Assembly: GCA_963808235.1 (NCBI GenBank)
Contig: CAWEEQ010000004.1
Span: 1,312,001-1,376,000, forward strand
Reading direction: 5' to 3'
Source: an uncultured delta proteobacterium
Lineage (GTDB): Bacteria; Desulfobacterota; Binatia; Binatales; Binataceae
Length of the DNA: 64,000 nucleotides
Each line of letters opens with the position of its first letter. The first letter of the stretch is position 1. Positions 18,732-28,951 of this stretch are shown here, in pieces. Made by a program: the position numbers and the translations under genes. The notes below the pieces were generated by a model that searched no databases, was not told the DNA's origin, and saw nothing but the letters and a program-made list of their open reading frames with translations.

Positions 18732-19547
18732 TTGCCTGCACCGTCCAAACCGCAGAAAAATCCCTACCTCGCGATCGAACGCGGCGAACCGGGCCGGATC
18801 GGTTGGCGCATACACTATTTCGACGAAATCGACTCCACCCAAAACGCCGCGCGCGAACTTGCTGCCGCGGGCGCTGACCAGGGCACCGTCGTAATCGCAG
18901 AGCGACAGACCGCGGGCCGCGGCCGGATGGGCCGCACGTGGCATTCGCCGGCGGGAGTTAATCTCTACGCGACGATAATTTTGCGCCCGCCGATTCCGAT
19001 GACCGACGTGCCGAGGCTGAGTCTTGTTGCGGGCGTCGCGGCGGCGCAGGCGCTCGAGCGCGAAGCAGTCGGAATCGTCGCGCTCAAGTGGCCCAACGAC
19101 TTGTGGCTCCGCGGACGCAAGGCCGGGGGCATCATCGCCGAGGCGGTGACCGACGCGCGGGGCCGGCTCAACTGCGTGCTTTTGGGAATCGGGATAAACA
19201 TCAATCTCGCCGCCGAGGACATTCCCGACCAACTGCGCGACAAGGCCACCTCGATGCGCATCGCGACCGGCCATCCATGCGATCGTATCGCGATTGCGGA
19301 TTCGCTTTTTAATCTGCTCGACTCCCGCTATATGGAAACCCTGACCCGCGGCTTCGAGGCGGTCCGCCCAATGTGGGAACGTTACTCGGCGCTGACCGGC
19401 AAGCGGGTCTCGATTGTCGTCGGCGATCGGCGCGAATCGGGGGTTGTGAAAGGAATCGACGCGGGAGGCGCACTGCTGCTAGACATCGGAGAGCGAATCG
19501 AGCGGATTGTCGCCGGCGAAGTGAGCGTCGAGGGCGCGTACGAGTAA
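18732..19547 (+). CDS. birA: Biotin--protein ligase (no N-terminal HTH)
   Basis: DSTQN, QTAGRGRMGRTW, KWPND, KAGGI, GIGIN. Confidence 0.93.
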   Translation: MPAPSKPQKNPYLAIERGEPGRIGWRIHYFDEIDSTQNAARELAAAGADQGTVVIAERQTAGRGRMGRTWHSPAGVNLYATIILRPPIPMTDVPRLSLVAGVAAAQALEREAVGIVALKWPNDLWLRGRKAGGIIAEAVTDARGRLNCVLLGIGININLAAEDIPDQLRDKATSMRIATGHPCDRIAIADSLFNLLDSRYMETLTRGFEAVRPMWERYSALTGKRVSIVVGDRRESGVVKGIDAGGALLLDIGERIERIVAGEVSVEGAYE

Positions 19548-19643
19548 GCTATATGTGATGTGCACGAAATAACTGCTTCGTTCGAGGCGCGGCGCGCTCG
19601 AATCGGCGCCGCTCTCGCGAGGCTTCGGAGAGAGGTAGTCGCT

Positions 19644-21761
19644 ATGGCTGTGGAGGAAATCGGACGGCTTAGAACTATCGCAATCGTTGGCCAGGGCGGC
19701 ACCGGCAAGACGCAGCTCGCCGACGCGATGCTCTTCACGGCCGGCGCCACGACCCGGCTCGGCCGCCCCGACGACGGTTCGGCGGCGATGGACTTCGAGC
19801 CCGAAGAAAACAAGCATCACATTTCAATCAGCTCCGCGTTTCACCATCTCAACTGGAAAAAGACCGAAATAATCATTGCCGATACTCCCGGCTACACCGC
19901 GTTCCTGCCCGAAACGATCACAACTCTCCGTGCCGTTGACGGTGTGGTGATTCTGATAAGCCCGGGCTCCGACACCAAGATTGAATCAGAAAAAATCTGG
20001 GCCGCGACCGCCGAGCTGAAGCTGCCGCGAATCGCATTCGTGTCGAGGCTCGATCGCGAGCGCACGAGCTTCGAAAGTGCGATGAAGGATCTGGAAAAAG
20101 TGCTCGGCGCGCGCGCAGTCGCGCTGACGATCCCGGTCGGCGAAGAGCTCGGCTTCAAGGGAATCGTCGACGTGCTCGCGATGAAGGCGCTCAGCTACTC
20201 CGACACCAGCGGCAAGTTCAAGGAAGAAGAACTCACGCCCGAGCTGAAGACTCGCGCCGAAGCCGCGCGCAACGCGCTCATGGAAGCGGTTGCGGAGACT
20301 GACGACGCGCTGCTCGAGAAATACCTCGACAAAGGAACCCTCGACGATACCGAAGTGCTCGCCGCACTTCGCAGCGCCGTGATGGATCGCACCGTCACGC
20401 CGGTCTTCTGCGGGTCGGGCGCAAAGAATATCGGCATCGCGCCTCTGCTCGACGCGATCACCAACTTTTTGCCGGCGCCCAATCAGCGGCCTCCTGTCGA
20501 ATGCCAAAATCCGGTTACTGGCGAGCCGGCCAATCGTCCCGCCGATCCGGCCGCGCCATTCGCAGCCCTGGTGTTCAAGACGGTGATCGATCCGTTTGCG
20601 GGCAAGCTCTCGATCTTCCGCGTCATCTCGGGCAGCGCGCATAGCGACGGCGCCGTGCTCAACTCATCGCGCGAATCGAAAGAACGCTTCGGCCAGTTGC
20701 TGAGACTTGAGGGCAAGAAGCAGACTCCGCTCGCCATCGCGATCGCAGGCGAGATCGTCGCAGTCGCCAAGTTGAAGGACACCACCACTGGCGACACGCT
20801 GTCCGACGAGAAAGCGCCGGTGCTCGTGATGCCTCCGTTGACGCGGCCGGCCGGCGTCATCTCCTTCGCGATTCATCCCAAGACCAAGAGCGATGAGGAG
20901 AAGTCTTCCGCCGCTCTGCAGAAACTGATCGAAGAAGATCTCGCACTCGAGATGCATCGCGATCCGCAGACCCACGACATCATTTTGTCCGGCACCGGCC
21001 AGATGCATATCGAAATGACGGTCGAAAAGCTCCGCAGAAAATTTAATGTAGACGTTGAACTTCAGGCGCCCAAGGTTCCCTACAAGGAAACCATCAAGGG
21101 ACGCGCCGAATCGCAGGGCAAATACAAGCGCCAGTCGGGCGGCCGCGGCCAATACGGCGATTGTTGGCTCAAGGTCGAGCCGATGCCGCGCGGCAAAGGC
21201 TTCGAGTTCGTCGACGCGATCGTTGGCGGCGTCATCCCGCGCAACTTCATCCCGTCGGTTGAGAAGGGCGTCCGCAACACGCTGGTCGAAGGGCACCTGG
21301 CCGGCTATCCGCTCGTTGATATCAAGGTCACGGTTTTCGACGGTAGTTATCACAACGTCGATTCGTCGGACATGGCGTTCCAGATTGCGGCCTCGATGGG
21401 CTTCAAGGCGGCGCTCGAAAAGGCCCGGCCGATCATTCTCGAGCCGATCGTCGCGATCGAAGTTGCGTGCCCCGACGAATGCATGGGCGACGTAATCGGA
21501 GATCTCAATTCACGCCGCGGCAAAGTGCTCGGGATGGACAGCAAGGGCAGCGGCCAGGTGATCAAGGCTCAGGTGCCGATGTCGGAGGTGCTCAAGTATG
21601 CGCCGGATTTGCGCTCGATCACTTCGGGACGCGGCTCGTTCGAGCAACATTTCTCGCACTACGAGGAAGCGCCGGCGCCCGTCGCGGAAAAGATAATCAA
21701 GGAGACGCACGCCGCGCGCGAGGCCGCCGGCGCCAAGGCGGGCGCTCACGCGCACGCATAG
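19644..21761 (+). CDS. fusA: Elongation factor G paralogue (EF-G2 type)
   Basis: GQGGTGKT, DTPG, QSGGRGQYG, DGSYHNVDSS. Divergent switch I (HHISI) and G4 (SRLD). Located outside the str operon. Confidence 0.9.
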   Translation: MAVEEIGRLRTIAIVGQGGTGKTQLADAMLFTAGATTRLGRPDDGSAAMDFEPEENKHHISISSAFHHLNWKKTEIIIADTPGYTAFLPETITTLRAVDGVVILISPGSDTKIESEKIWAATAELKLPRIAFVSRLDRERTSFESAMKDLEKVLGARAVALTIPVGEELGFKGIVDVLAMKALSYSDTSGKFKEEELTPELKTRAEAARNALMEAVAETDDALLEKYLDKGTLDDTEVLAALRSAVMDRTVTPVFCGSGAKNIGIAPLLDAITNFLPAPNQRPPVECQNPVTGEPANRPADPAAPFAALVFKTVIDPFAGKLSIFRVISGSAHSDGAVLNSSRESKERFGQLLRLEGKKQTPLAIAIAGEIVAVAKLKDTTTGDTLSDEKAPVLVMPPLTRPAGVISFAIHPKTKSDEEKSSAALQKLIEEDLALEMHRDPQTHDIILSGTGQMHIEMTVEKLRRKFNVDVELQAPKVPYKETIKGRAESQGKYKRQSGGRGQYGDCWLKVEPMPRGKGFEFVDAIVGGVIPRNFIPSVEKGVRNTLVEGHLAGYPLVDIKVTVFDGSYHNVDSSDMAFQIAASMGFKAALEKARPIILEPIVAIEVACPDECMGDVIGDLNSRRGKVLGMDSKGSGQVIKAQVPMSEVLKYAPDLRSITSGRGSFEQHFSHYEEAPAPVAEKIIKETHAAREAAGAKAGAHAHA

Positions 21762-21787
21762 AATCGAAGATCGAGGCTGGGCAGCTG

Positions 21788-22300
21788 TTACTTGCGGCGT
21801 CGAAGCGCGTCCGACATGCCGTCATGCGGTCCCAGGCGCCGCTTGGGAATATCGTCCCACCATTCGCTCGGCGGCAGGTCGCCGCGGCGTTGCGGATGCA
21901 TCGGATAGAAAATCCGGTTGTCGGGCTTTGAAGCCTCTCCACCGACTAGCAACAGGGCCTCGTGCTCTGCGTTGTTTATGAAGCAATGGCAAATGCCGGT
22001 GCCCGCGGGAAGTGCCGCAAAGTCTCCGGCGCGCATCGCGTGAACATCGCCGTCGATCCACGCGTCCACCTCGCCCTCGAGAACGTAAACAAACTCTTCC
22101 TCTTTCTCCTCGGCGTGCGGCCAGGAGCTTCGCACTCCGGGCGGCAACCGCATCAGGTGGATGCCGATCTTCGCGAGCCCGGCAGCTTTGCCGATGCTCC
22201 TTTGATACCCCATGTATTCGTCGCTATTCGGATAATGATGCCGCGTCTCGACACACGACGCGGCGGCAATGATGAAGGGTGGTCGTTGGCTATTGCTCAT
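21788..22300 (-). CDS. Cupin domain protein
   Basis: SSWPHAE..EEEFVYVLEG and GICHCFIN cupin motifs. Confidence 0.88.
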   Translation of the reverse strand: MSNSQRPPFIIAAASCVETRHHYPNSDEYMGYQRSIGKAAGLAKIGIHLMRLPPGVRSSWPHAEEKEEEFVYVLEGEVDAWIDGDVHAMRAGDFAALPAGTGICHCFINNAEHEALLLVGGEASKPDNRIFYPMHPQRRGDLPPSEWWDDIPKRRLGPHDGMSDALRRRK

Positions 22301-22377
22301 GCCGTCCTGTAACACAAAGTGCCCCCGTATTGCTGCGAGGCGCCGTCTTGTACAATCGGCGCTGAGTCATTTCAGCG

Positions 22378-22590
22378 ATGGCGCCGTTAGGAAAATCTCT
22401 GGTCTTCGCCGGTGTCGGGATGGCGCTGGTCGGCCTCGCTATCTGGGGACTCTCGTCAGTTCCGTACGTCGGCCGCATCCTCGGCGATATCTACATCCGC
22501 CGCGGAAACTTCAGCGTCTACTTTCCGCTCGCGACCTGCATCCTAATCAGCGTCATCGCGACTATACTGTTCTCGCTGATGAGGCATTAA
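22378..22590 (+). CDS. DUF2905 family small membrane protein
   Basis: GRILGDIYIRRGNFSVYFPLATCILIS signature. Confidence 0.85.
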   Translation: MAPLGKSLVFAGVGMALVGLAIWGLSSVPYVGRILGDIYIRRGNFSVYFPLATCILISVIATILFSLMRH

Positions 22591-22593
22591 GGC

Positions 22594-24822
22594 TTGGCGG
22601 CGAATAAAACTGTCAGTCCGCGCCGGCTCGTGGAGCGCAAGCGACGCCGCCGCGAGTTGATCGCGGTTGGCGTGGCCGGCGCGACGCTCGTCGCATTCGT
22701 GCTCGCCCAGACCGAACTGCCGCCGCTCACGCGGCACACCTCGCTGGTCTCGAACCTCGCCGTCATCTCGCTCTTCAACCTGAGCTTCCTGCTGCTCGGC
22801 CTGATGCTGTTCCTGGTCGGGCGCAATCTCGCCAAAGTTATTTTCGAGCGCCGCCGCGGACTGATCGGCTCGAAGTTCCAGGTCAAGCTGGTGGCTGGAT
22901 TTATCGCCGTTGCGCTGATTCCAAGCGCCTTCCTCCTGTATGTCTCCGGCGTGTTTCTGCACGAACAAATCAATAGCTGGTTCAACCCCGAATACGAGCA
23001 GATCCTCGACGACTCGCTCGAGATCGCCAAAACCTACTATTTGAACTCGGCCAACAACGCGTCCCATTTCGCGCGCGAGCTGGCCGAGCAAATCTCCGCA
23101 CTGGGATTGCTCGCGCCGAATAAGCGCGACGATTTGAAAAAGTTCATCGCCCGGCGTCAGCAGGAATACAATCTCGGCACCATCGAGGTTTTCTCCGCCG
23201 ACCGCAAACTCCTGCTCCTCGACATCAGTCCCAAGACTCCGACCGGCATCGGCGCTTCGCCCGATTCTCCGATTATCTCACAGACTCTGAAGGGAGAGGC
23301 TCTCACTCGCACCGATCGGCTCGGCAACGCCGACGTGGTGCGCGGCTCCGCGCCGATTTACGTTTCCGCCGAGACCGACAACGTTCTTGGTGCGGTCCTG
23401 GTCGACTATTACTTGCCGAAGAGCCTGGCCACGCGTGCGACCGATATCTCGCGGGTGTCGGAAGATTATTTCCAGCTCCGGATTCTTCGCCAGCCACTCA
23501 TGAACAGCTATCTGCTGACGCTGGTCTTGATCGGACTGGTTGTGGTGACGCTCGCGAGCTGGTTCGGGATATTTTTGTCACGCGGAATCACCGGCCCGAT
23601 CAAGCTGCTTGCCCGCGGAACGCAGGCAGTTGCCGGCGGCGATCTGAACTTCCGCATTCCTGCCGTCGGCGACGACGAGATCGGCCAACTGGTCGATTCC
23701 TTCAACCAGATGACCGCCGACCTGCGCAGCTCCGGCGCCGAACTCGAGCGCCGCCGCCAGTACACAGAGACGCTGCTCCGCAACGTGTCCGCCGGTGTCG
23801 TCGGTCTTGACCATGAAGGCGTTGTCACGACGATCAATCCATGCGCCGAGCGCCTGCTCGGCCTCGACAGTGCCAGCGTGATCGGTCGCAACTACCAGGG
23901 TGCTTTTCCGCCCTCGCTCGCGCGCTCGCTGGACGACGTATTTGCGACCGCGATGCGGCCGCGCGAGGCGCGCTCGACCGTCAAGCTCGAGGTCTCGGGC
24001 ACCGAGATGGAACTAATGATGACCGCGAGCCCGCTCGGCGACACTCCGAACGCGCCCGCTGGAACAGTGCTTTTCTTCGAGGACGTGAGCCAGATCGCGA
24101 AGGTCGAGCGGATGGAAGCGTGGCGCGAAGTCGCGCGCCGAATCGCGCACGAAATCAAAAATCCATTGACGCCGATCCAGCTTTCCGCCGAGCGCCTTCG
24201 CCGCCAGCTAGGCTCGCGCGCTGGCGCCGAATCGGCGCTGGTCGAGGAATGCACCCGCGTCATCATTGGCGAGGTCGAGGACCTGAAGCGGCTCGTCAAC
24301 GAATTTTCCGCGTTCGCACGGATGCCGCATCTGAACCTGATTCCCGGCGATATCAACCTGCTCGCGAGCGAGACCGCCGCCAATTTCCGCGAAGCCAACC
24401 CCAACGTGGATTTCGCGCTTACGCTCGATGCGTCAGTGCCCCCGATTCTGATCGATCGCGAAGCCCTGAAGCGCGCGCTGGTCAACCTGCTCGACAACGC
24501 CGTCGCCGCGGTGAGCGCCGTCAATCATAACGGCGACCGCCCGCGAATCGAGGTTCTAAGCCGCCGCCGCGCCGACAATTCCATCGTCACTGTCGAAGTC
24601 GCCGACAACGGGCCCGGAATCGATCCGCGCCTGCGCACCCGCATCTTCGAGCCCTACTATTCGAGCAAGAAGGGTGGCACCGGACTCGGCCTCGCAATCG
24701 TGTCGGCGGTGGTCTCGGACCATCACGGCTTCGTTCGTGTGATCGATAACCAGCCGCATGGAAGTAGATTTGTACTGGAGTTTCCCGTACAATCCGCACA
24801 ATTCGTAAAGGCAACTGCCTGA
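22594..24822 (+). CDS. NtrY-like sensor histidine kinase (TM-periplasmic-HAMP-PAS-HisKA-HATPase)
   Basis: WREVARRIAHEIKNPLTPIQLSAE H-box typical of NtrY; NLLDNA, DNGPG, GTGLGL. Confidence 0.93.
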   Translation: MAANKTVSPRRLVERKRRRRELIAVGVAGATLVAFVLAQTELPPLTRHTSLVSNLAVISLFNLSFLLLGLMLFLVGRNLAKVIFERRRGLIGSKFQVKLVAGFIAVALIPSAFLLYVSGVFLHEQINSWFNPEYEQILDDSLEIAKTYYLNSANNASHFARELAEQISALGLLAPNKRDDLKKFIARRQQEYNLGTIEVFSADRKLLLLDISPKTPTGIGASPDSPIISQTLKGEALTRTDRLGNADVVRGSAPIYVSAETDNVLGAVLVDYYLPKSLATRATDISRVSEDYFQLRILRQPLMNSYLLTLVLIGLVVVTLASWFGIFLSRGITGPIKLLARGTQAVAGGDLNFRIPAVGDDEIGQLVDSFNQMTADLRSSGAELERRRQYTETLLRNVSAGVVGLDHEGVVTTINPCAERLLGLDSASVIGRNYQGAFPPSLARSLDDVFATAMRPREARSTVKLEVSGTEMELMMTASPLGDTPNAPAGTVLFFEDVSQIAKVERMEAWREVARRIAHEIKNPLTPIQLSAERLRRQLGSRAGAESALVEECTRVIIGEVEDLKRLVNEFSAFARMPHLNLIPGDINLLASETAANFREANPNVDFALTLDASVPPILIDREALKRALVNLLDNAVAAVSAVNHNGDRPRIEVLSRRRADNSIVTVEVADNGPGIDPRLRTRIFEPYYSSKKGGTGLGLAIVSAVVSDHHGFVRVIDNQPHGSRFVLEFPVQSAQFVKATA

Positions 24823-24867
24823 TGCTTTCCTTGCCGCGCGACGCGCGATTTCCCGGAGAAATTTGAA

Positions 24868-26145
24868 GTGAATGAGACCGTTTTGGTGGTGGATGATGAG
24901 GAGCGGATTCGGTCGTCAATTCGTGGAATCTTAAGCGACGAAGGCTTTCGCGTCGTCGATACCGGCAACGCGCCGACCGTGATGGACCTTATCGCGCGAG
25001 AGAATCCGGCCATCGTCCTGCTCGACGTATGGATGCCGGACATGGACGGCATCGAGCTGCTCCGCCGGATCAAAGCCGAGCAGCCACGCGTCCCGGTGAT
25101 CATGATCTCGGGCCACGCCAACATTCAGAACGCGGTCGCCGCCACCAAGCTCGGCGCCGCCGACTTTATCCAGAAACCATTTTCCGTCAGCGGATTGCTC
25201 GCGTCGATTGCTCGCGCGCTCGAAGGCGATTCCACCGGCCCCGACTCGTCGGACGCGGGCGGACGTAAGCTCGCGACCGGCGCGACCGCACGCAATGCGT
25301 TAGGCGCCGGCGCGATTCCTCAGCGCACCATCGCGCGTTCGATCGTGATGGGCGGGCAGGGGCTTCATTCCGGCCTCAAGACCGGCGTCATACTGCATCC
25401 GGCCCCGGCCGGATCCGGAATCGCGTTCTCGTCGCTTGCTGACGAAACTACGATCGCGGTGCGATTCGAGAACGTCAGCGACACCGGCTACAACACCACG
25501 CTCACCAGCGGCGGGCGCTCGGTCCGGACCGTGGAACATCTTCTTTCCGCTCTTCACGCATTCGGGATCACCAATCTACTGGTCAAGACCGACGACGAAG
25601 TCCCGGCGCTCGACGGCTCGGCGCTCGAGTTCTGCAAACAGATCGGCGAGGCTGGACTCACCGACCAGGAAACGACTGTGGTGCCGATTACGATCCAAAA
25701 GAAGATCGTCATCGGTTCGGAAGGCATTGGCCGCGAGTTCATCAGGGCCGAGCCCGCCGACCATCTGATCATCGACTACACTCTCGACTATCCGAATCCG
25801 ATCGGCGTGCAGCAGGTGCATTTCGAGCTGACTTCTGTCGATGCCTACGCGCGCGAGATTGCACCCGCACGCACCTTCAGCCTGGTGCGCGAGTTCCGCA
25901 AGCTCACCGAGATGGGCCTCGGGAACGGCGGCCGCCTCGACAATTTGATCCTGGTTGACGATGAAAAAGTCGTGAACACCGCGCTCCGCTTCCCCGACGA
26001 ATTCGCGCGTCACAAGATTCTCGATTTGATCGGCGATCTCTACCTGCTCGGCCGCCCGCTCCATGCTCACGTCACGGCATCGAAGACCGGCCACTCCGAC
26101 AACCTCGCACTAGTAAAAGCAATCCGCACCTCGCTGGGCAGCTGA
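24868..26145 (+). CDS. lpxC: Receiver domain fused to UDP-3-O-acyl-GlcNAc deacetylase (REC-LpxC)
   Basis: aa 1-118 REC (D9, D10, D53, S81, K103). From aa 152 LpxC: QRTI, GLHSG, TVEHLLSAL, DGSA, ARTF, RHKILDLIGDL, GH. Confidence 0.93.
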   Translation: MNETVLVVDDEERIRSSIRGILSDEGFRVVDTGNAPTVMDLIARENPAIVLLDVWMPDMDGIELLRRIKAEQPRVPVIMISGHANIQNAVAATKLGAADFIQKPFSVSGLLASIARALEGDSTGPDSSDAGGRKLATGATARNALGAGAIPQRTIARSIVMGGQGLHSGLKTGVILHPAPAGSGIAFSSLADETTIAVRFENVSDTGYNTTLTSGGRSVRTVEHLLSALHAFGITNLLVKTDDEVPALDGSALEFCKQIGEAGLTDQETTVVPITIQKKIVIGSEGIGREFIRAEPADHLIIDYTLDYPNPIGVQQVHFELTSVDAYAREIAPARTFSLVREFRKLTEMGLGNGGRLDNLILVDDEKVVNTALRFPDEFARHKILDLIGDLYLLGRPLHAHVTASKTGHSDNLALVKAIRTSLGS

Positions 26146-26148
26146 CCC

Positions 26149-26246
26149 GCGCGCAAACAGCCGCATGCGATCCCGGATCGCCATGAACCCCAACGCGATT
26201 GTTCCCCTTCCCTCGAGTGAAGGGGTTAGGGATTAGGTTTGCTCGC
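26149..26246. repeat. REP/MITE-like structured intergenic element
   Basis: Terminal inverted repeats GCGCGCAAAC / GTTTGCTCGC enclose the palindrome GCGATCC-c-GGATCGC and the hairpin CCCCTTC..GAAGGGG. Confidence 0.55.
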
Positions 26247-26270
26247 GCTGGTGCCCCTGCAAACCTCAAC

Positions 26271-27002
26271 ATGGATCTCAAAGGAAAAGTCGCGATAGTC
26301 ACCGGCGCAAGCCGCAGAATCGGCCGCGCAATCGCACTAGAAGTAGCCGCGCACGGCGCAGCGATCGCAGTCCACTACCGATCCTCGCACGCCGAGGCGG
26401 ACGCAGTCGTCGCCGAGATCGCGCGCAAACGCGGCAAGGCGCATGCATTCCACGCCAATCTCCAAAATGTTTCCGAGATCGAGAAGATGGTCACCGACGT
26501 GCTCGCATCGTTCGGCCGAATCGACGTGCTCGTCAACTCGGCCTCGGTCTTCACGCGCAAGCCGCTCGAGGAAATCACTGAGCGCGATTGGGACTCGAAC
26601 CTCGACACCAACTTGAAGGCGCCATTCTTTCTATCCAAGTTCGCGGGCGCCGCGATGCGTAAGCAAGGCGCAGGCAAAATCGTCAACATCGGCGATTGGG
26701 CCGGCATCCGCCCGTACAAGGACTACTTGCCGTACAGCGTCTCCAAAAATGGGTTGATAGGCCTCACCCAGGCGATGGCCAAGGCGCTCGCACCCCAAGT
26801 TCAAGTCAACTGCATCGCGCTCGGCCTCGTGATGCCGCCCGAGGAGTACAGCAAAGACGAAGTCGCGCGCCTGGTAAGTCGCACCTTGACCAAAAAAATG
26901 GGCTCGCCGGAGGACGTCGCGCGCGCTGTGATCTTTTTCTGCGAGACCGACTTTGCGACCGGCGCCACCCTGGCCCTCGAAGGCGGCCGCCTCCTCAGTT
27001 AG
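26271..27002 (+). CDS. Short-chain dehydrogenase/reductase, pteridine reductase/FolM-like
   Basis: TGASRRIG, VNSAS, YSVSK. Confidence 0.88.
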   Translation: MDLKGKVAIVTGASRRIGRAIALEVAAHGAAIAVHYRSSHAEADAVVAEIARKRGKAHAFHANLQNVSEIEKMVTDVLASFGRIDVLVNSASVFTRKPLEEITERDWDSNLDTNLKAPFFLSKFAGAAMRKQGAGKIVNIGDWAGIRPYKDYLPYSVSKNGLIGLTQAMAKALAPQVQVNCIALGLVMPPEEYSKDEVARLVSRTLTKKMGSPEDVARAVIFFCETDFATGATLALEGGRLLS

Positions 27003-27868
27003 CCCAGATCGCGGAGAATCTCTCTAGCGGTGGACATCCAGTAGGCGGTCCATGCCGGAGGGTGATGACGAATCGACCAATCCACCTGCCGGACGATCAT
27101 GTGCGCCAAATAGACCGTGAGCGCGTCATGTCCCGAGTGATCGATCACCTCGCGCCAAAGCGGATCTCGCACTTCTCGATTGCCGTACGAATAGAAAAGA
27201 AAAGTTGCCAGATCGAAGCCCCGATCGCCGGCACATACGCCGTCCCAATCGATCACGCCCGTGACATATTCTCCATCATTGAGCACGTTGCCCGGATTGA
27301 AATCCCAATGAACGATGTCGCCGGTGATGAATATCCCGTTCGCGTGGCGGACGACCAATTCCTGAACTGTCTCGAGCAGCGCCGCGCTCTCCGCGGAGTA
27401 GTCGCGCAGCGTGTCGATGACGCAGTACCGCTCGAAGCCTTTCAGCACACCGTCGATCACTCGGCCCGGCCACTCCGGCGGCAGGTCGCCGGCGAGCCCG
27501 GCCTGAATACGATTGATCGCGATCAATTCGCGAACCATCGAGGGTGTGATCGTCTGGCTCGGGCGCCCCGGCATCATCGCCTGAATCGAGTACTTAGTGC
27601 CGGCATCGTCGCCGACGCATACATACAAGGGAGCTGGATATCCGGCTTCTCGCAGGCGTTTCGTGCTCTGTTGAGCTTCTTCCGAGCGGGTTTCCGTGCC
27701 GTACCCGAACTTCAGAACAAATCGTTCGCCGACCCCGTCGGTGAGGATATAAGCGGCGTGGCTCTCTCCCATTTCGATGCGATCGCGCAGAGTAAACGCG
27801 GTACGATGGCGCGAATTTATCTCCGCGACGAGTGCGTCGACGTCAACTGGATTTCCATCCGAGGGCAT
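26999..27868 (-). CDS. Aminoglycoside phosphotransferase / choline kinase-like protein
   Basis: VLK, HWDFNPGNVL, VIDWD. Substrate unknown. Confidence 0.82.
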   Translation of the reverse strand: MPSDGNPVDVDALVAEINSRHRTAFTLRDRIEMGESHAAYILTDGVGERFVLKFGYGTETRSEEAQQSTKRLREAGYPAPLYVCVGDDAGTKYSIQAMMPGRPSQTITPSMVRELIAINRIQAGLAGDLPPEWPGRVIDGVLKGFERYCVIDTLRDYSAESAALLETVQELVVRHANGIFITGDIVHWDFNPGNVLNDGEYVTGVIDWDGVCAGDRGFDLATFLFYSYGNREVRDPLWREVIDHSGHDALTVYLAHMIVRQVDWSIRHHPPAWTAYWMSTAREILRDLG

Positions 27869-27889: not shown

Positions 27890-28951
27890 CTACGGAGCAG
27901 GGGGCGGCGGCTCTTCTTTCGGAGGATTTTTGAATTCGATCTTCGCAGTCTTGGCGAGCTTTTTCAGAAGCGCCTTCACGACTTCGTTCTGATTGTAGTC
28001 AAGCAGGACCATCGCGACTTTGGCCTTCACTTCAGGGAGCGGCGAGATCGATTCGCCGCGCCGCGCCACCACCTTGATAAAGCTGAAGCCGAGATTCGAC
28101 TGCACGATTTGCGTTGTTTGTCCGACCGGCGTCGCGAACACCATCTTGTCCACGACCGGCGGGAGCTGCCCGGGCCGGAAGTAACCGAGGTCTCCGCCTT
28201 TCGCGGCCGACTGCGTGTCCTCTGAATTCTTTTGCGCAAGCGCCGCGAAGTCTTTGCTCTTCTGCGCTTCTTTGTAGAGCTTCAGGATCTTATCCTCGGC
28301 CGCTTTCTTCTGCGCGTCGGTTGCCTTGGGTGGAATCTTCACCGCGATATGCGCGATTTGCACCTCGCCCGGATCCTTCACGAACAAGTCGTGATGCTCC
28401 TCGTAGTATTGCTTGATTTGCGCGTCGGTCGGCTGCACATGATGCGCCCGGAATTCGTCGTCGAGCATTTTTTCGATCAACATCGATCCGCGCACCGCGT
28501 TCATCAGTTGCGCGTCGGGAGCACCGCCGGTGTTGACCGCCGCGCCGCTCGCGCCGGCGACCTGGAACTCGCGCGCGCGCTGCGCCACTTCGCCGTCGGA
28601 CACCGTGATCTTGCGCCGCGCCGCCTCCTGCAAAAGAAGACGCCGGCCAACCAGGTTTTCCGCCGCGTCGCGAAAGACCGCCTTGGTTTCCTCGGTGCTG
28701 GTGGCGTTGAGCATCTTCTCCTCGGTCTTCGCATAGTCGGAGACTTCCGCCGCCGTTATCGGCGCGCCGTTAACCGTGACTACGACCGGATCTTTTGGAT
28801 CGGGCTTGACGAGCGGAATTATGCCCAGGAAGCGCTGTTCCCAACTGAGACCCGATTGCCCCAGCTGAGCGCGGATCGGCGGGACGCTTGCAACCGCAAT
28901 GGCAAACGCCACAATCAGAACTGCGAGCGATCTTCGGCAAATGCCCATCAA
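27890..28951 (-). CDS. SurA/PrsA-like PpiC-type peptidylprolyl isomerase
   Basis: Signal peptide, VTVNG, AHI, FAALAQKNSED, GGDLGYF. Confidence 0.9.
   Translation of the reverse strand: MMGICRRSLAVLIVAFAIAVASVPPIRAQLGQSGLSWEQRFLGIIPLVKPDPKDPVVVTVNGAPITAAEVSDYAKTEEKMLNATSTEETKAVFRDAAENLVGRRLLLQEAARRKITVSDGEVAQRAREFQVAGASGAAVNTGGAPDAQLMNAVRGSMLIEKMLDDEFRAHHVQPTDAQIKQYYEEHHDLFVKDPGEVQIAHIAVKIPPKATDAQKKAAEDKILKLYKEAQKSKDFAALAQKNSEDTQSAAKGGDLGYFRPGQLPPVVDKMVFATPVGQTTQIVQSNLGFSFIKVVARRGESISPLPEVKAKVAMVLLDYNQNEVVKALLKKLAKTAKIEFKNPPKEEPPPPAP

Follow-up and report, generated by a model that had tools for sequence, protein, structure and literature searches.

We analysed a 64,000-nucleotide stretch of contig CAWEEQ010000004.1 (assembly GCA_963808235.1, positions 1,312,001 to 1,376,000; an uncultured soil delta proteobacterium of the Binataceae), hereafter the window, in which a gene for an NtrY-like sensor histidine kinase is followed by a gene that joins a response-regulator receiver (REC) domain to LpxC. 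LpxC commits the cell to lipid A, is the control point of lipopolysaccharide (LPS) synthesis and a major antibiotic target, and both its excess and its shortage are harmful. How it is regulated is understood for a few proteobacteria only, and involves FtsH/LapB/YejM, MurA, possibly Lon, and transcriptional control by NtrYX and ChvGI.

The open reading frames (ORFs) for the kinase and for REC-LpxC are consecutive and lie on the same strand (Table 1). Their coordinates bear out a first-pass annotation of this DNA, made from the letters alone, which had described a kinase, a 45-bp gap and a 425-aa ORF; the start that it gave for the system, 22378, is intergenic and upstream of the kinase, for which 22594 is the first possible start codon. 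The two genes probably form one operon. A terminator scan gave no terminator-like site between them, and in two homologous loci (L021, L095) the kinase and the fused gene overlap by 4 bp. No promoter is put forward for the locus: the sigma54-type pattern occurred 53 times in the window, where 55.8 occurrences were expected, with none in 22316-22593, and a sigma70-type scan of 21700-27200 returned 0 sites. A look for RNA records over 24600-26200 listed none.

Table 1. Features of the locus, its neighbours in the window, and the long-form loci of other genomes
Feature	Position	Strand	Remarks
NtrY-like sensor histidine kinase gene	22594..24822	+	742 aa; from the ORF list
Spacer between kinase and REC-LpxC	24823..24867	+	45 bp; GGAG at 24855-24858, nine bases 5' of the GTG start
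REC-LpxC gene	24868..26145	+	425 aa; GTG start
Receiver (REC) domain	24868..25227	+	residues 1-120; D53 codon at 25024-25026
Flexible linker	25228..25305	+	residues 121-146; Gly/Ser/Ala-rich, not conserved
LpxC deacetylase domain	25306..26145	+	residues 147-425; stop codon included
Long-form fused loci L037-L047, L050, L051	e.g. L042:5968-8163:-		proteins P0121-P0240; 685-743 aa
BirA biotin ligase	18732-19547	+	TIGR00121, 197 bits
Elongation factor G (EF-G) paralogue	19560-21761	+	
Short-chain dehydrogenase/reductase (SDR) gene	26199-27002	+	pteridine-reductase/FabG-like, below family cut-offs
SurA/PpiC-type peptidyl-prolyl isomerase	27890-28951	-	signal-like N-terminus; all equivalog scores under cut-off

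The kinase and the REC-LpxC protein

The kinase carried the Pfam domains NtrY_N (a marginal match), dCache_3, HAMP, PAS, HisKA and HATPase_c. It has four transmembrane-like segments (residues 22-40, 57-75, 99-117 and 310-328), an extracytoplasmic loop of about 190 residues flanked by such segments, and the H-box His519 together with the N, G1 and G2 boxes. Membership in the NtrY type was judged on an NtrY region with transmembrane segments, on HAMP, PAS, HisKA and HATPase_c and on the H-box His, all of which are present; on its sequence, the protein is NtrY-like in domain architecture, as had been annotated. It is also the one NtrY_N match in this genome.

Both halves of the 425-aa protein were recognised clearly. 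Response_reg (PF00072) matched residues 5-114 (E 9e-32, 110 bits against a cut-off of 30) and LpxC (PF03331) residues 152-419 (E 5e-83, 279 bits against 27), the latter covering profile positions 1-266 of 268; the NCBIfam lpxC equivalog TIGR00325 scored 233 bits, with a cut-off of 187. The phosphorylation set of the receiver is complete, with the acidic pair D9/D10, the phospho-acceptor D53, S81, the switch residue F100 and K103-P104, and so are the LpxC motifs TVEH (221-224), HKILDLIGD (382-390) and GH (408-409), with E223/H224, T336/F337, H382/K383/D386/D390 and H409 as key residues. When 38 short-form homologues were aligned, D9, D10, D53, S81, K103, P104 and the LpxC motifs were invariant and F100 was at least 90% conserved; the residues listed by the first-pass annotation for both halves are all present. 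TVEH, HKxLDxxGD and GH also line up with P. aeruginosa LpxC in the solved-structure search. By analogy with the E. coli and Aquifex enzymes we take E223-H224, H382, D386 and H409 to be the zinc ligands (His, His, Asp) and the catalytic Glu/His pair. REC-LpxC would be a catalytically competent LpxC deacetylase of lipid A synthesis.

The annotated NtrX-like character of the receiver was supported by its best NCBIfam match, NtrX (127 bits, residues 4-121), and by its top solved structures, the NtrX receiver entries 4d6x and 5m7n. The full NtrX equivalog (NF051870: REC, AAA+ and helix-turn-helix, HTH) has a cut-off of 600 bits, far above these 127 bits, and a Pfam scan found no AAA+ or HTH domain in the 425-aa protein. 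Since the full-length score is missed and the AAA+ and HTH parts are gone, REC-LpxC is not an NtrX; the receiver alone is NtrX-like.

An AlphaFold model built on a 38-row alignment had a mean pLDDT of 87.1; for this model and for that of a homologue described below, the read-out consisted of pLDDT, pTM and secondary structure. Residues 121-146 formed the sole stretch of low confidence, with pLDDT below 50, and have no consensus among the 38 short forms, in line with the flexible linker annotated at first. The modelled LpxC part superimposes on Aquifex LpxC (1p42/5u86) with a target TM score of 0.94-0.95 and an rmsd of 1.6 A over 275 columns. For the whole chain the pTM was 0.85 despite the disordered linker, which hints at a defined packing of the predicted receiver and LpxC domains. 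A complex prediction from the separate receiver (1-122) and LpxC (148-425), with alignment A1, gave an ipSAE of 0.06 relative to a mark of 0.32; it was run without controls and is used neither for nor against packing.

REC-LpxC is the single LpxC match in this genome (4.59 Mb in 4 contigs, 92.95% complete), and no regulator reached the NtrX cut-off, which bears on the question of a second lpxC or an ntrX that the first-pass annotation had raised; about nine full-length NtrC-type regulators are present. LpxA gave two matches above the TIGR01852 cut-off (308 bits, G000:C4:2650875-2651633; 279 bits, G000:C4:1744034-1744792). LpxB and LpxK gave single matches each, clustered with LpxA at 2.65-2.667 Mb, about 1.3 Mb from the fused gene.

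This is a metagenome-type assembly with thin read cover across the junction, and we had to consider that the fusion might be an assembly chimera, a frameshift error or a deletion confined to a single genome. Contigs of four soil or metagenome runs covered the REC-LpxC gene patchily, and none spans it whole. One contig of soil run X1 matches 25025-25318 with zero differences, nearly the whole of the interval 25220-25320 singled out earlier for confirmation; run X1 is possibly the source sample, and its contig is therefore weak support for the junction. One contig of run X4 matches 25028-25286 with 7 differences. A depth peak at 25024-25056 was false, being due to receiver genes of other organisms with loose ends on both sides; these 33 bases encode the conserved receiver motif LLDVWMPDMDG. 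Much stronger evidence came from relatives. PF03331 and PF00072 were both present in all 120 of the best relatives listed from a collection of 5.8 billion proteins (73-100% identical; the named ones are Candidatus Binatus or Binataceae), in 17 ESM Atlas clusters with the Response_reg+LpxC family set, of which the three top ones are commonest in Candidatus Binatota, in one ORF at 40/40 loci from other genomes, and at 28 loci from named genomes. Because the relatives and the other loci hold both domains, a chimera or private deletion, the outcome that would have undone the first-pass annotation, is excluded for all practical purposes.

Distribution and forms of the fusion

The fusion had been noted as a singular oddity. 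It is instead a large family across several phyla, with a second, longer form. The sample covered 201 genomes of this GTDB phylum, and a full-length match to REC-LpxC was present in 25 of them, this one included. After start-codon trimming, 40 fused loci of other genomes divided into 27 short (413-455 aa) and 13 long (685-743 aa) forms, which together with this genome and G158, counted on its full-length match, put a fused LpxC in at least 42/201 genomes. Six further cases are likely fused from frame length and identity (G031, G070, G126, G138, the C52 copy of G199, and G074). The names on homologues were Candidatus Binatota and Thermodesulfobacteriota. Fused genomes of this sample had one LpxC match each, except G034, G199 and G074; the two matches of G074 are taken for one copy cut at a contig end.

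The scan of named genomes yielded the 28 full-length loci with receiver and LpxC in one ORF. Carriers were Candidatus Binatia/Binataceae, Syntrophobacter, Syntrophobacteraceae, Syntrophorhabdus, Desulfocapsaceae and the cultured strain Desulfopila sp. IMCC35006, as well as 'Deltaproteobacteria' metagenome-assembled genomes (MAGs), Holophagae, Holophagales, Thermoanaerobaculia, Acidobacteria, a Thermodesulfovibrionia bacterium and one 'Pseudomonadota' MAG. The Thermoanaerobaculia, Thermodesulfovibrionia and Syntrophobacter genomes tested had no LpxC match besides the fused gene, and a Holophagae genome had a fused copy and a partial second match. Within 1.84 billion cluster representatives, 1836 proteins reached E 1e-30, and about 45 of the best 150 are fused by a rough reading of lengths and matched ranges. 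Public databases label the fused protein plainly 'LpxC'.

Three distant representatives (P0303, P0309 and P0332, 412-456 aa), outside the tree described below, were 29-34% identical in the receiver and 36-37% in LpxC; the stretch after the catalytic His is different in P0309 and P0332, and a separate fusion origin is possible for all three. Just downstream of the fused gene of a Thermoanaerobaculia genome, a second ORF (L093:3717-4616:+) matched residues 185-249 of the query LpxC domain only, at 52% identity, and may be a duplicated LpxC fragment.

We then compared 106 fused proteins of both forms residue by residue. D53 was found in 104, K103 in 105, S/T81 in 106 and F/Y100 in 104, while E223, H224, H382, K383 and D386 were kept in all 106 and D390 and H409 in 105. 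This near-complete retention in both halves indicated that both are under purifying selection as functional domains. It bears on the idea that the receiver is a non-signalling leftover of an NtrX-LpxC fusion, or a phosphate sink for the kinase, with LpxC effectively constitutive. Visible decay of the AAA+ and HTH parts in the long form, and a kinase that is unlinked in many genomes, would agree with a leftover. However, a phosphorylation set kept in 104-106 of the 106 proteins, across several phyla, is unexpected for a relic, nor would a sink have to be joined to an LpxC that is essential and the only copy. We therefore regard a leftover or a sink as improbable.

The long form has the Pfam domains Response_reg, Sigma54_activat, AAA_lid_14 and LpxC (five proteins scanned). 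The full set was present in 119 of the best 120 relatives of one long protein, P0229 being without the receiver; their names include Thermodesulfobacteriota, Desulfobacterota and Deltaproteobacteria, and JGI labels several of them NtrX. The 13 aligned long forms retain Walker A (GxxGxGKE), have another residue in place of the Walker B Glu and lack the GAFTGA loop. A Fis-type HTH-like stretch stands just before LpxC in 10/13; HTH_8 scored 32.2 bits in P0217 (cut-off 22) and 18.7 and 20.4 bits in two others. The long form is, in effect, a whole NtrX-like regulator joined to LpxC. Four cluster representatives of 535-615 aa (P0266, P0277, P0278 and P0279) had AAA+ and LpxC with no receiver match; they may be long forms whose gene calls were cut short, or examples of a third architecture.

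To place the two forms, a quick maximum-likelihood IQ-TREE analysis of the LpxC domain was run on 61 rows, 41 fused and 20 unfused of the same phylum, with none left out. All 41 fused domains fell into one clade (SH-aLRT 100) on a stem of 1.06 changes per column, and within it long and short forms were interspersed, requiring 3-4 changes. One clade with interspersed forms fits a single fusion, after which the AAA+-HTH part was lost several times. This pattern would imply a course from the long to the short form.

Linkage of the kinase to lpxC and known systems

Each of the 5 further genomes sampled from the class, one per family f1-f5 (L014, L015, L016, L019, L021), has the kinase-then-REC-LpxC order. 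Together with L018, from a sixth family of the phylum, these make up the 6/27 short loci with the kinase directly upstream of the fused gene. The same position was seen in 5/13 long loci and in 10/28 named loci, including Syntrophobacteraceae and Thermodesulfovibrionia, the latter with a 4-bp gene overlap. A triple kinase-REC-LpxC fusion was considered because G076, G110 and G143 have open frames of 1007-1423 aa. It was rejected for G143 and G110 (L015, L016), in which the kinase and the fused gene share a strand but not a reading frame; in G076 (L019) the kinase and REC-LpxC matches fall into two separate overlapping ORFs. When the kinase was unlinked, 5/5 genomes had exactly one full-length NtrY-like kinase elsewhere, and in 5/5 this lone kinase had no response regulator within 1.5 kb.

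The link extends to genomes with an unfused enzyme. The sensor part of the kinase (residues 1-330) was detected in 184/201 genomes of the phylum, nearly always once. We compared the 110 genomes in which unfused lpxC and the kinase both stood among the best 150 matches of each search, and in 42 of these the kinase was at most 5 kb from unfused lpxC, mostly 1-2.2 kb start to start. At 7/20 unfused loci (L060, L064, L066, L069, L072, L073, L078) the kinase is the next gene after lpxC, in the same orientation. In L066 the kinase is in turn followed by a REC-AAA+ regulator with GAFTGA and an unimpaired Walker B; the receiver of this regulator shares 51% identity with the one studied here. The same type of kinase is thus tied to LpxC in three ways: in an lpxC-kinase-regulator neighbourhood, as a kinase followed by a regulator fused to LpxC, and as a kinase followed by a receiver fused to LpxC.

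Published genetics point to comparable circuits. According to Lemmer et al. (2020, PMC7240162), deletion of ntrYX in R. sphaeroides raised lpxC mRNA 8.8-fold and increased LPS, with no NtrX site at lpxC. The alphaproteobacterial NtrY/NtrX pair resembles the present system in kinase architecture, in the best matches of the receiver and in its tie to lpxC and the envelope; NtrX, however, is a REC-AAA+-HTH protein that acts on transcription and affects lpxC indirectly, whereas here LpxC is the output. Another two-component system, DVU2931/DVU2934 (Dde_3000/Dde_3003) of Desulfovibrio, is dedicated to lpxC. lpxC was reported as the single target of D. vulgaris DVU2934, and S. fumaroxidans has lpxC immediately 5' of the operon of the orthologous regulator (Rajeev et al., 2011, PMC3333781), a gene order that fits the lpxC-kinase synteny in 42/110 genomes. 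DVU2934 is listed as a two-component regulator with GAFTGA (Kazakov et al., 2015, PMC4641369), and a mutant of the cognate kinase in D. alaskensis had strongly increased lpxC, apparently as the only target (Kuehl et al., 2014, PMC4045070). That system controls transcription through a sigma54 activator with GAFTGA, whereas here the receiver is covalently joined to LpxC.

Other known controls of LpxC work differently, through a protease and its adaptor in E. coli (FtsH/LapB/YejM) or a partner enzyme that activates LpxC in P. aeruginosa (MurA), whereas here a phosphorylatable domain sits inside LpxC. The other LpxC fusion that we found in print, LpxC-FabZ/FabA (bioRxiv 10.1101/2025.10.16.682753; NCBIfam NF009667), carries an enzyme of a neighbouring pathway at the C-terminus of LpxC, in contrast to a signalling domain at the N-terminus. 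A review lists FtsH/LapB/YejM, MurA, Lon, transcription under NtrYX and ChvGI, and Ght as regulators of LpxC (Hummels, 2025, PMC12444477); in it 'fusion' occurs 0 times, and the passages on phosphorylation that we consulted concern LpxK. Our literature searches found no published description of a receiver-LpxC protein, which agrees with the earlier remark that no characterised example was known.

These observations suggest a possible origin. A dedicated circuit running from kinase to sigma54-type response regulator to lpxC promoter, widespread in the same phylum, would have come first. The regulator would then have become fused to LpxC, its AAA+ and HTH parts would have decayed, and both would have been deleted in the short form. 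Tandem duplication of an lpxC-kinase-regulator operon would set the 3' end of the regulator beside lpxC, and we suggest this as a way in which the fusion may have arisen. The fusion would represent a transcriptional circuit from kinase to lpxC that collapsed into direct phospho-control of the enzyme.

Possible phospho-control of LpxC

We consider it fairly probable that the two genes encode a two-component system in which LpxC itself is the response regulator, under phospho-control by the kinase. The NtrY-like membrane kinase would sense an envelope or redox cue via its extracytoplasmic loop or PAS domain, and would then set the phosphorylation state of D53 in a receiver that is tethered to a complete LpxC by the 26-residue flexible linker. 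This state would switch the output of the sole LpxC, and with it the flux into lipid A. Phosphotransfer from the kinase to D53, the effect on LpxC and its direction are all predictions; the first-pass proposal that phosphorylation sets the activity, stability or oligomer state of LpxC is likewise a plausible prediction.

CheB offers a parallel, since its receiver blocks the active site until phosphorylated. It likewise holds an N-terminal receiver, a flexible linker and a C-terminal hydrolase in a single chain. CheB, however, is a chemotaxis esterase that works with CheA, whereas here a zinc deacetylase, LpxC, is found with an NtrY-like membrane kinase; and autoinhibition of CheB is textbook knowledge, whereas that of REC-LpxC is what we infer. 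By analogy, the unphosphorylated receiver would restrain the deacetylase and phosphorylation would release it. This CheB-like arrangement is favoured because the architecture is the same, because LpxC works as a monomer, because the proposed ancestor was a sigma54 activator and phosphorylation normally turns such activators on, and because of the pTM of 0.85. As to the direction of the switch, we lean only slightly towards activation by phosphorylation.

The receiver might instead act by assembly or placement, either through phospho-dependent dimerisation via the alpha4-beta5-alpha5 face, of the kind known for NtrC/NtrX-type receivers, or through recruitment to the membrane kinase, bringing LpxC to membrane-bound partners and leaving catalysis unchanged. 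The receiver is indeed NtrX/NtrC-like, with the switch residues S81 and F100 kept, and the long linker would permit action in trans. On the other hand, LpxC is monomeric in solved structures and we know of no LpxC dimer interface, and the single-chain pTM of 0.85 suggests packing in cis; we judge control by assembly or placement to be quite unlikely.

Phosphorylation could also set the amount of LpxC, the receiver being a phospho-dependent degron or adaptor-like module, similar to RssB, that delivers the enzyme to a protease and replaces the FtsH/LapB route. Proteolysis controls LpxC in the best-studied systems, as set out in the review (PMC12444477). The locus departs from the E. coli route in two respects, for LapB was not found in this genome and the C-terminal tail is short. 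In the search for LapB, NF008757 gave generic tetratricopeptide-repeat matches only (39.7 bits; cut-off 363), and PF18073 had no match; the latter profile also matches in Gram-positive bacteria and was not used for a phylum-wide LapB comparison. REC-LpxC has 16 residues only after H409. Fused LpxC domains in general have 15-25 residues after the catalytic His (median 17; 37/41 measured), and so lack the longer tail of their unfused relatives (21-55, median 44; 18/20 measured). These features would fit a degron in the receiver, but none of the neighbouring genes is a protease or adaptor gene linked to the locus, Aquifex LpxC, the best structural match, typically has a short tail as well, and no sequence feature identifies the receiver as a degron. 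Control through the amount of enzyme is, in our view, unlikely.

Several observations weigh against direct phospho-control of LpxC by this kinase, or limit its reach. The synteny with NtrY, for which a check had been proposed earlier, held throughout the sampled class and in a minority of loci elsewhere, the kinase being non-adjacent in 21/27 short and 8/13 long fused loci, adjacent in 0/11 Acidobacteriota loci, and non-adjacent in most fused loci outside the class; in the unlinked genomes the pairing rests on the kinase being a lone orphan (5 genomes, 1.5-kb flanks). With 25.9 bits (27.7 bits in the genome search), the NtrY_N match of the kinase is a marginal one, the cut-off being 23.2. G034, G199 and Desulfopila sp. 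IMCC35006 have fused and unfused lpxC together, so that the fused copy there need not be the housekeeping enzyme, and this genome, at 92.95% completeness, might conceivably hold a second lpxC. The model of the Thermoanaerobaculia homologue had a pTM of 0.74, again with a disordered linker, and the docking of REC on LpxC and the face used are weakly predicted. Finally, in the published mutants, losing the kinase or the whole two-component system raises lpxC expression, and the kinase may therefore be mainly a brake or a phosphatase. These mutants fit a braking kinase and phosphorylation-activation with a phosphatase-dominant kinase equally well.

The surroundings of the locus are partly conserved. 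The Binataceae gene order EF-G paralogue, kinase, REC-LpxC, SDR was kept in L014, L098, L099 and L106; in the window studied here, a minus-strand cupin gene separates the EF-G paralogue from the kinase. Three loci of another family (L017, L023, L032) likewise have an SDR gene, 30-35% identical, no more than about 1 kb away from the fused one.

What is new here is the long sister form, the single fused clade, and the kinase beside unfused lpxC in 42/110 genomes. REC-LpxC itself would be a response regulator whose output is an enzyme, and would add a new way of controlling LpxC. A more general reading, to which we give an even chance, is that the ancient core job of NtrY-type systems is homeostasis of LPS synthesis, the fused forms providing control of LpxC independent of FtsH/LapB and MurA. 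It is put forward because this kinase type is tied to lpxC by neighbourhood, by a dedicated sigma54 regulator and by NtrX-LpxC and REC-LpxC fusions, and because NtrYX of alphaproteobacteria also restrains lpxC. With switch and enzyme in one protein, the fusion would offer a clean in-vitro system. If our reading is true, a receiver in the sole LpxC is a direct signalling input into outer-membrane biogenesis. The series from unfused enzyme to long fusion to short fusion serves as a Rosetta-stone link to the role of the widespread and little-understood NtrY-type kinases in these phyla, a link that agrees with the independent genetics of Desulfovibrio and Rhodobacter.

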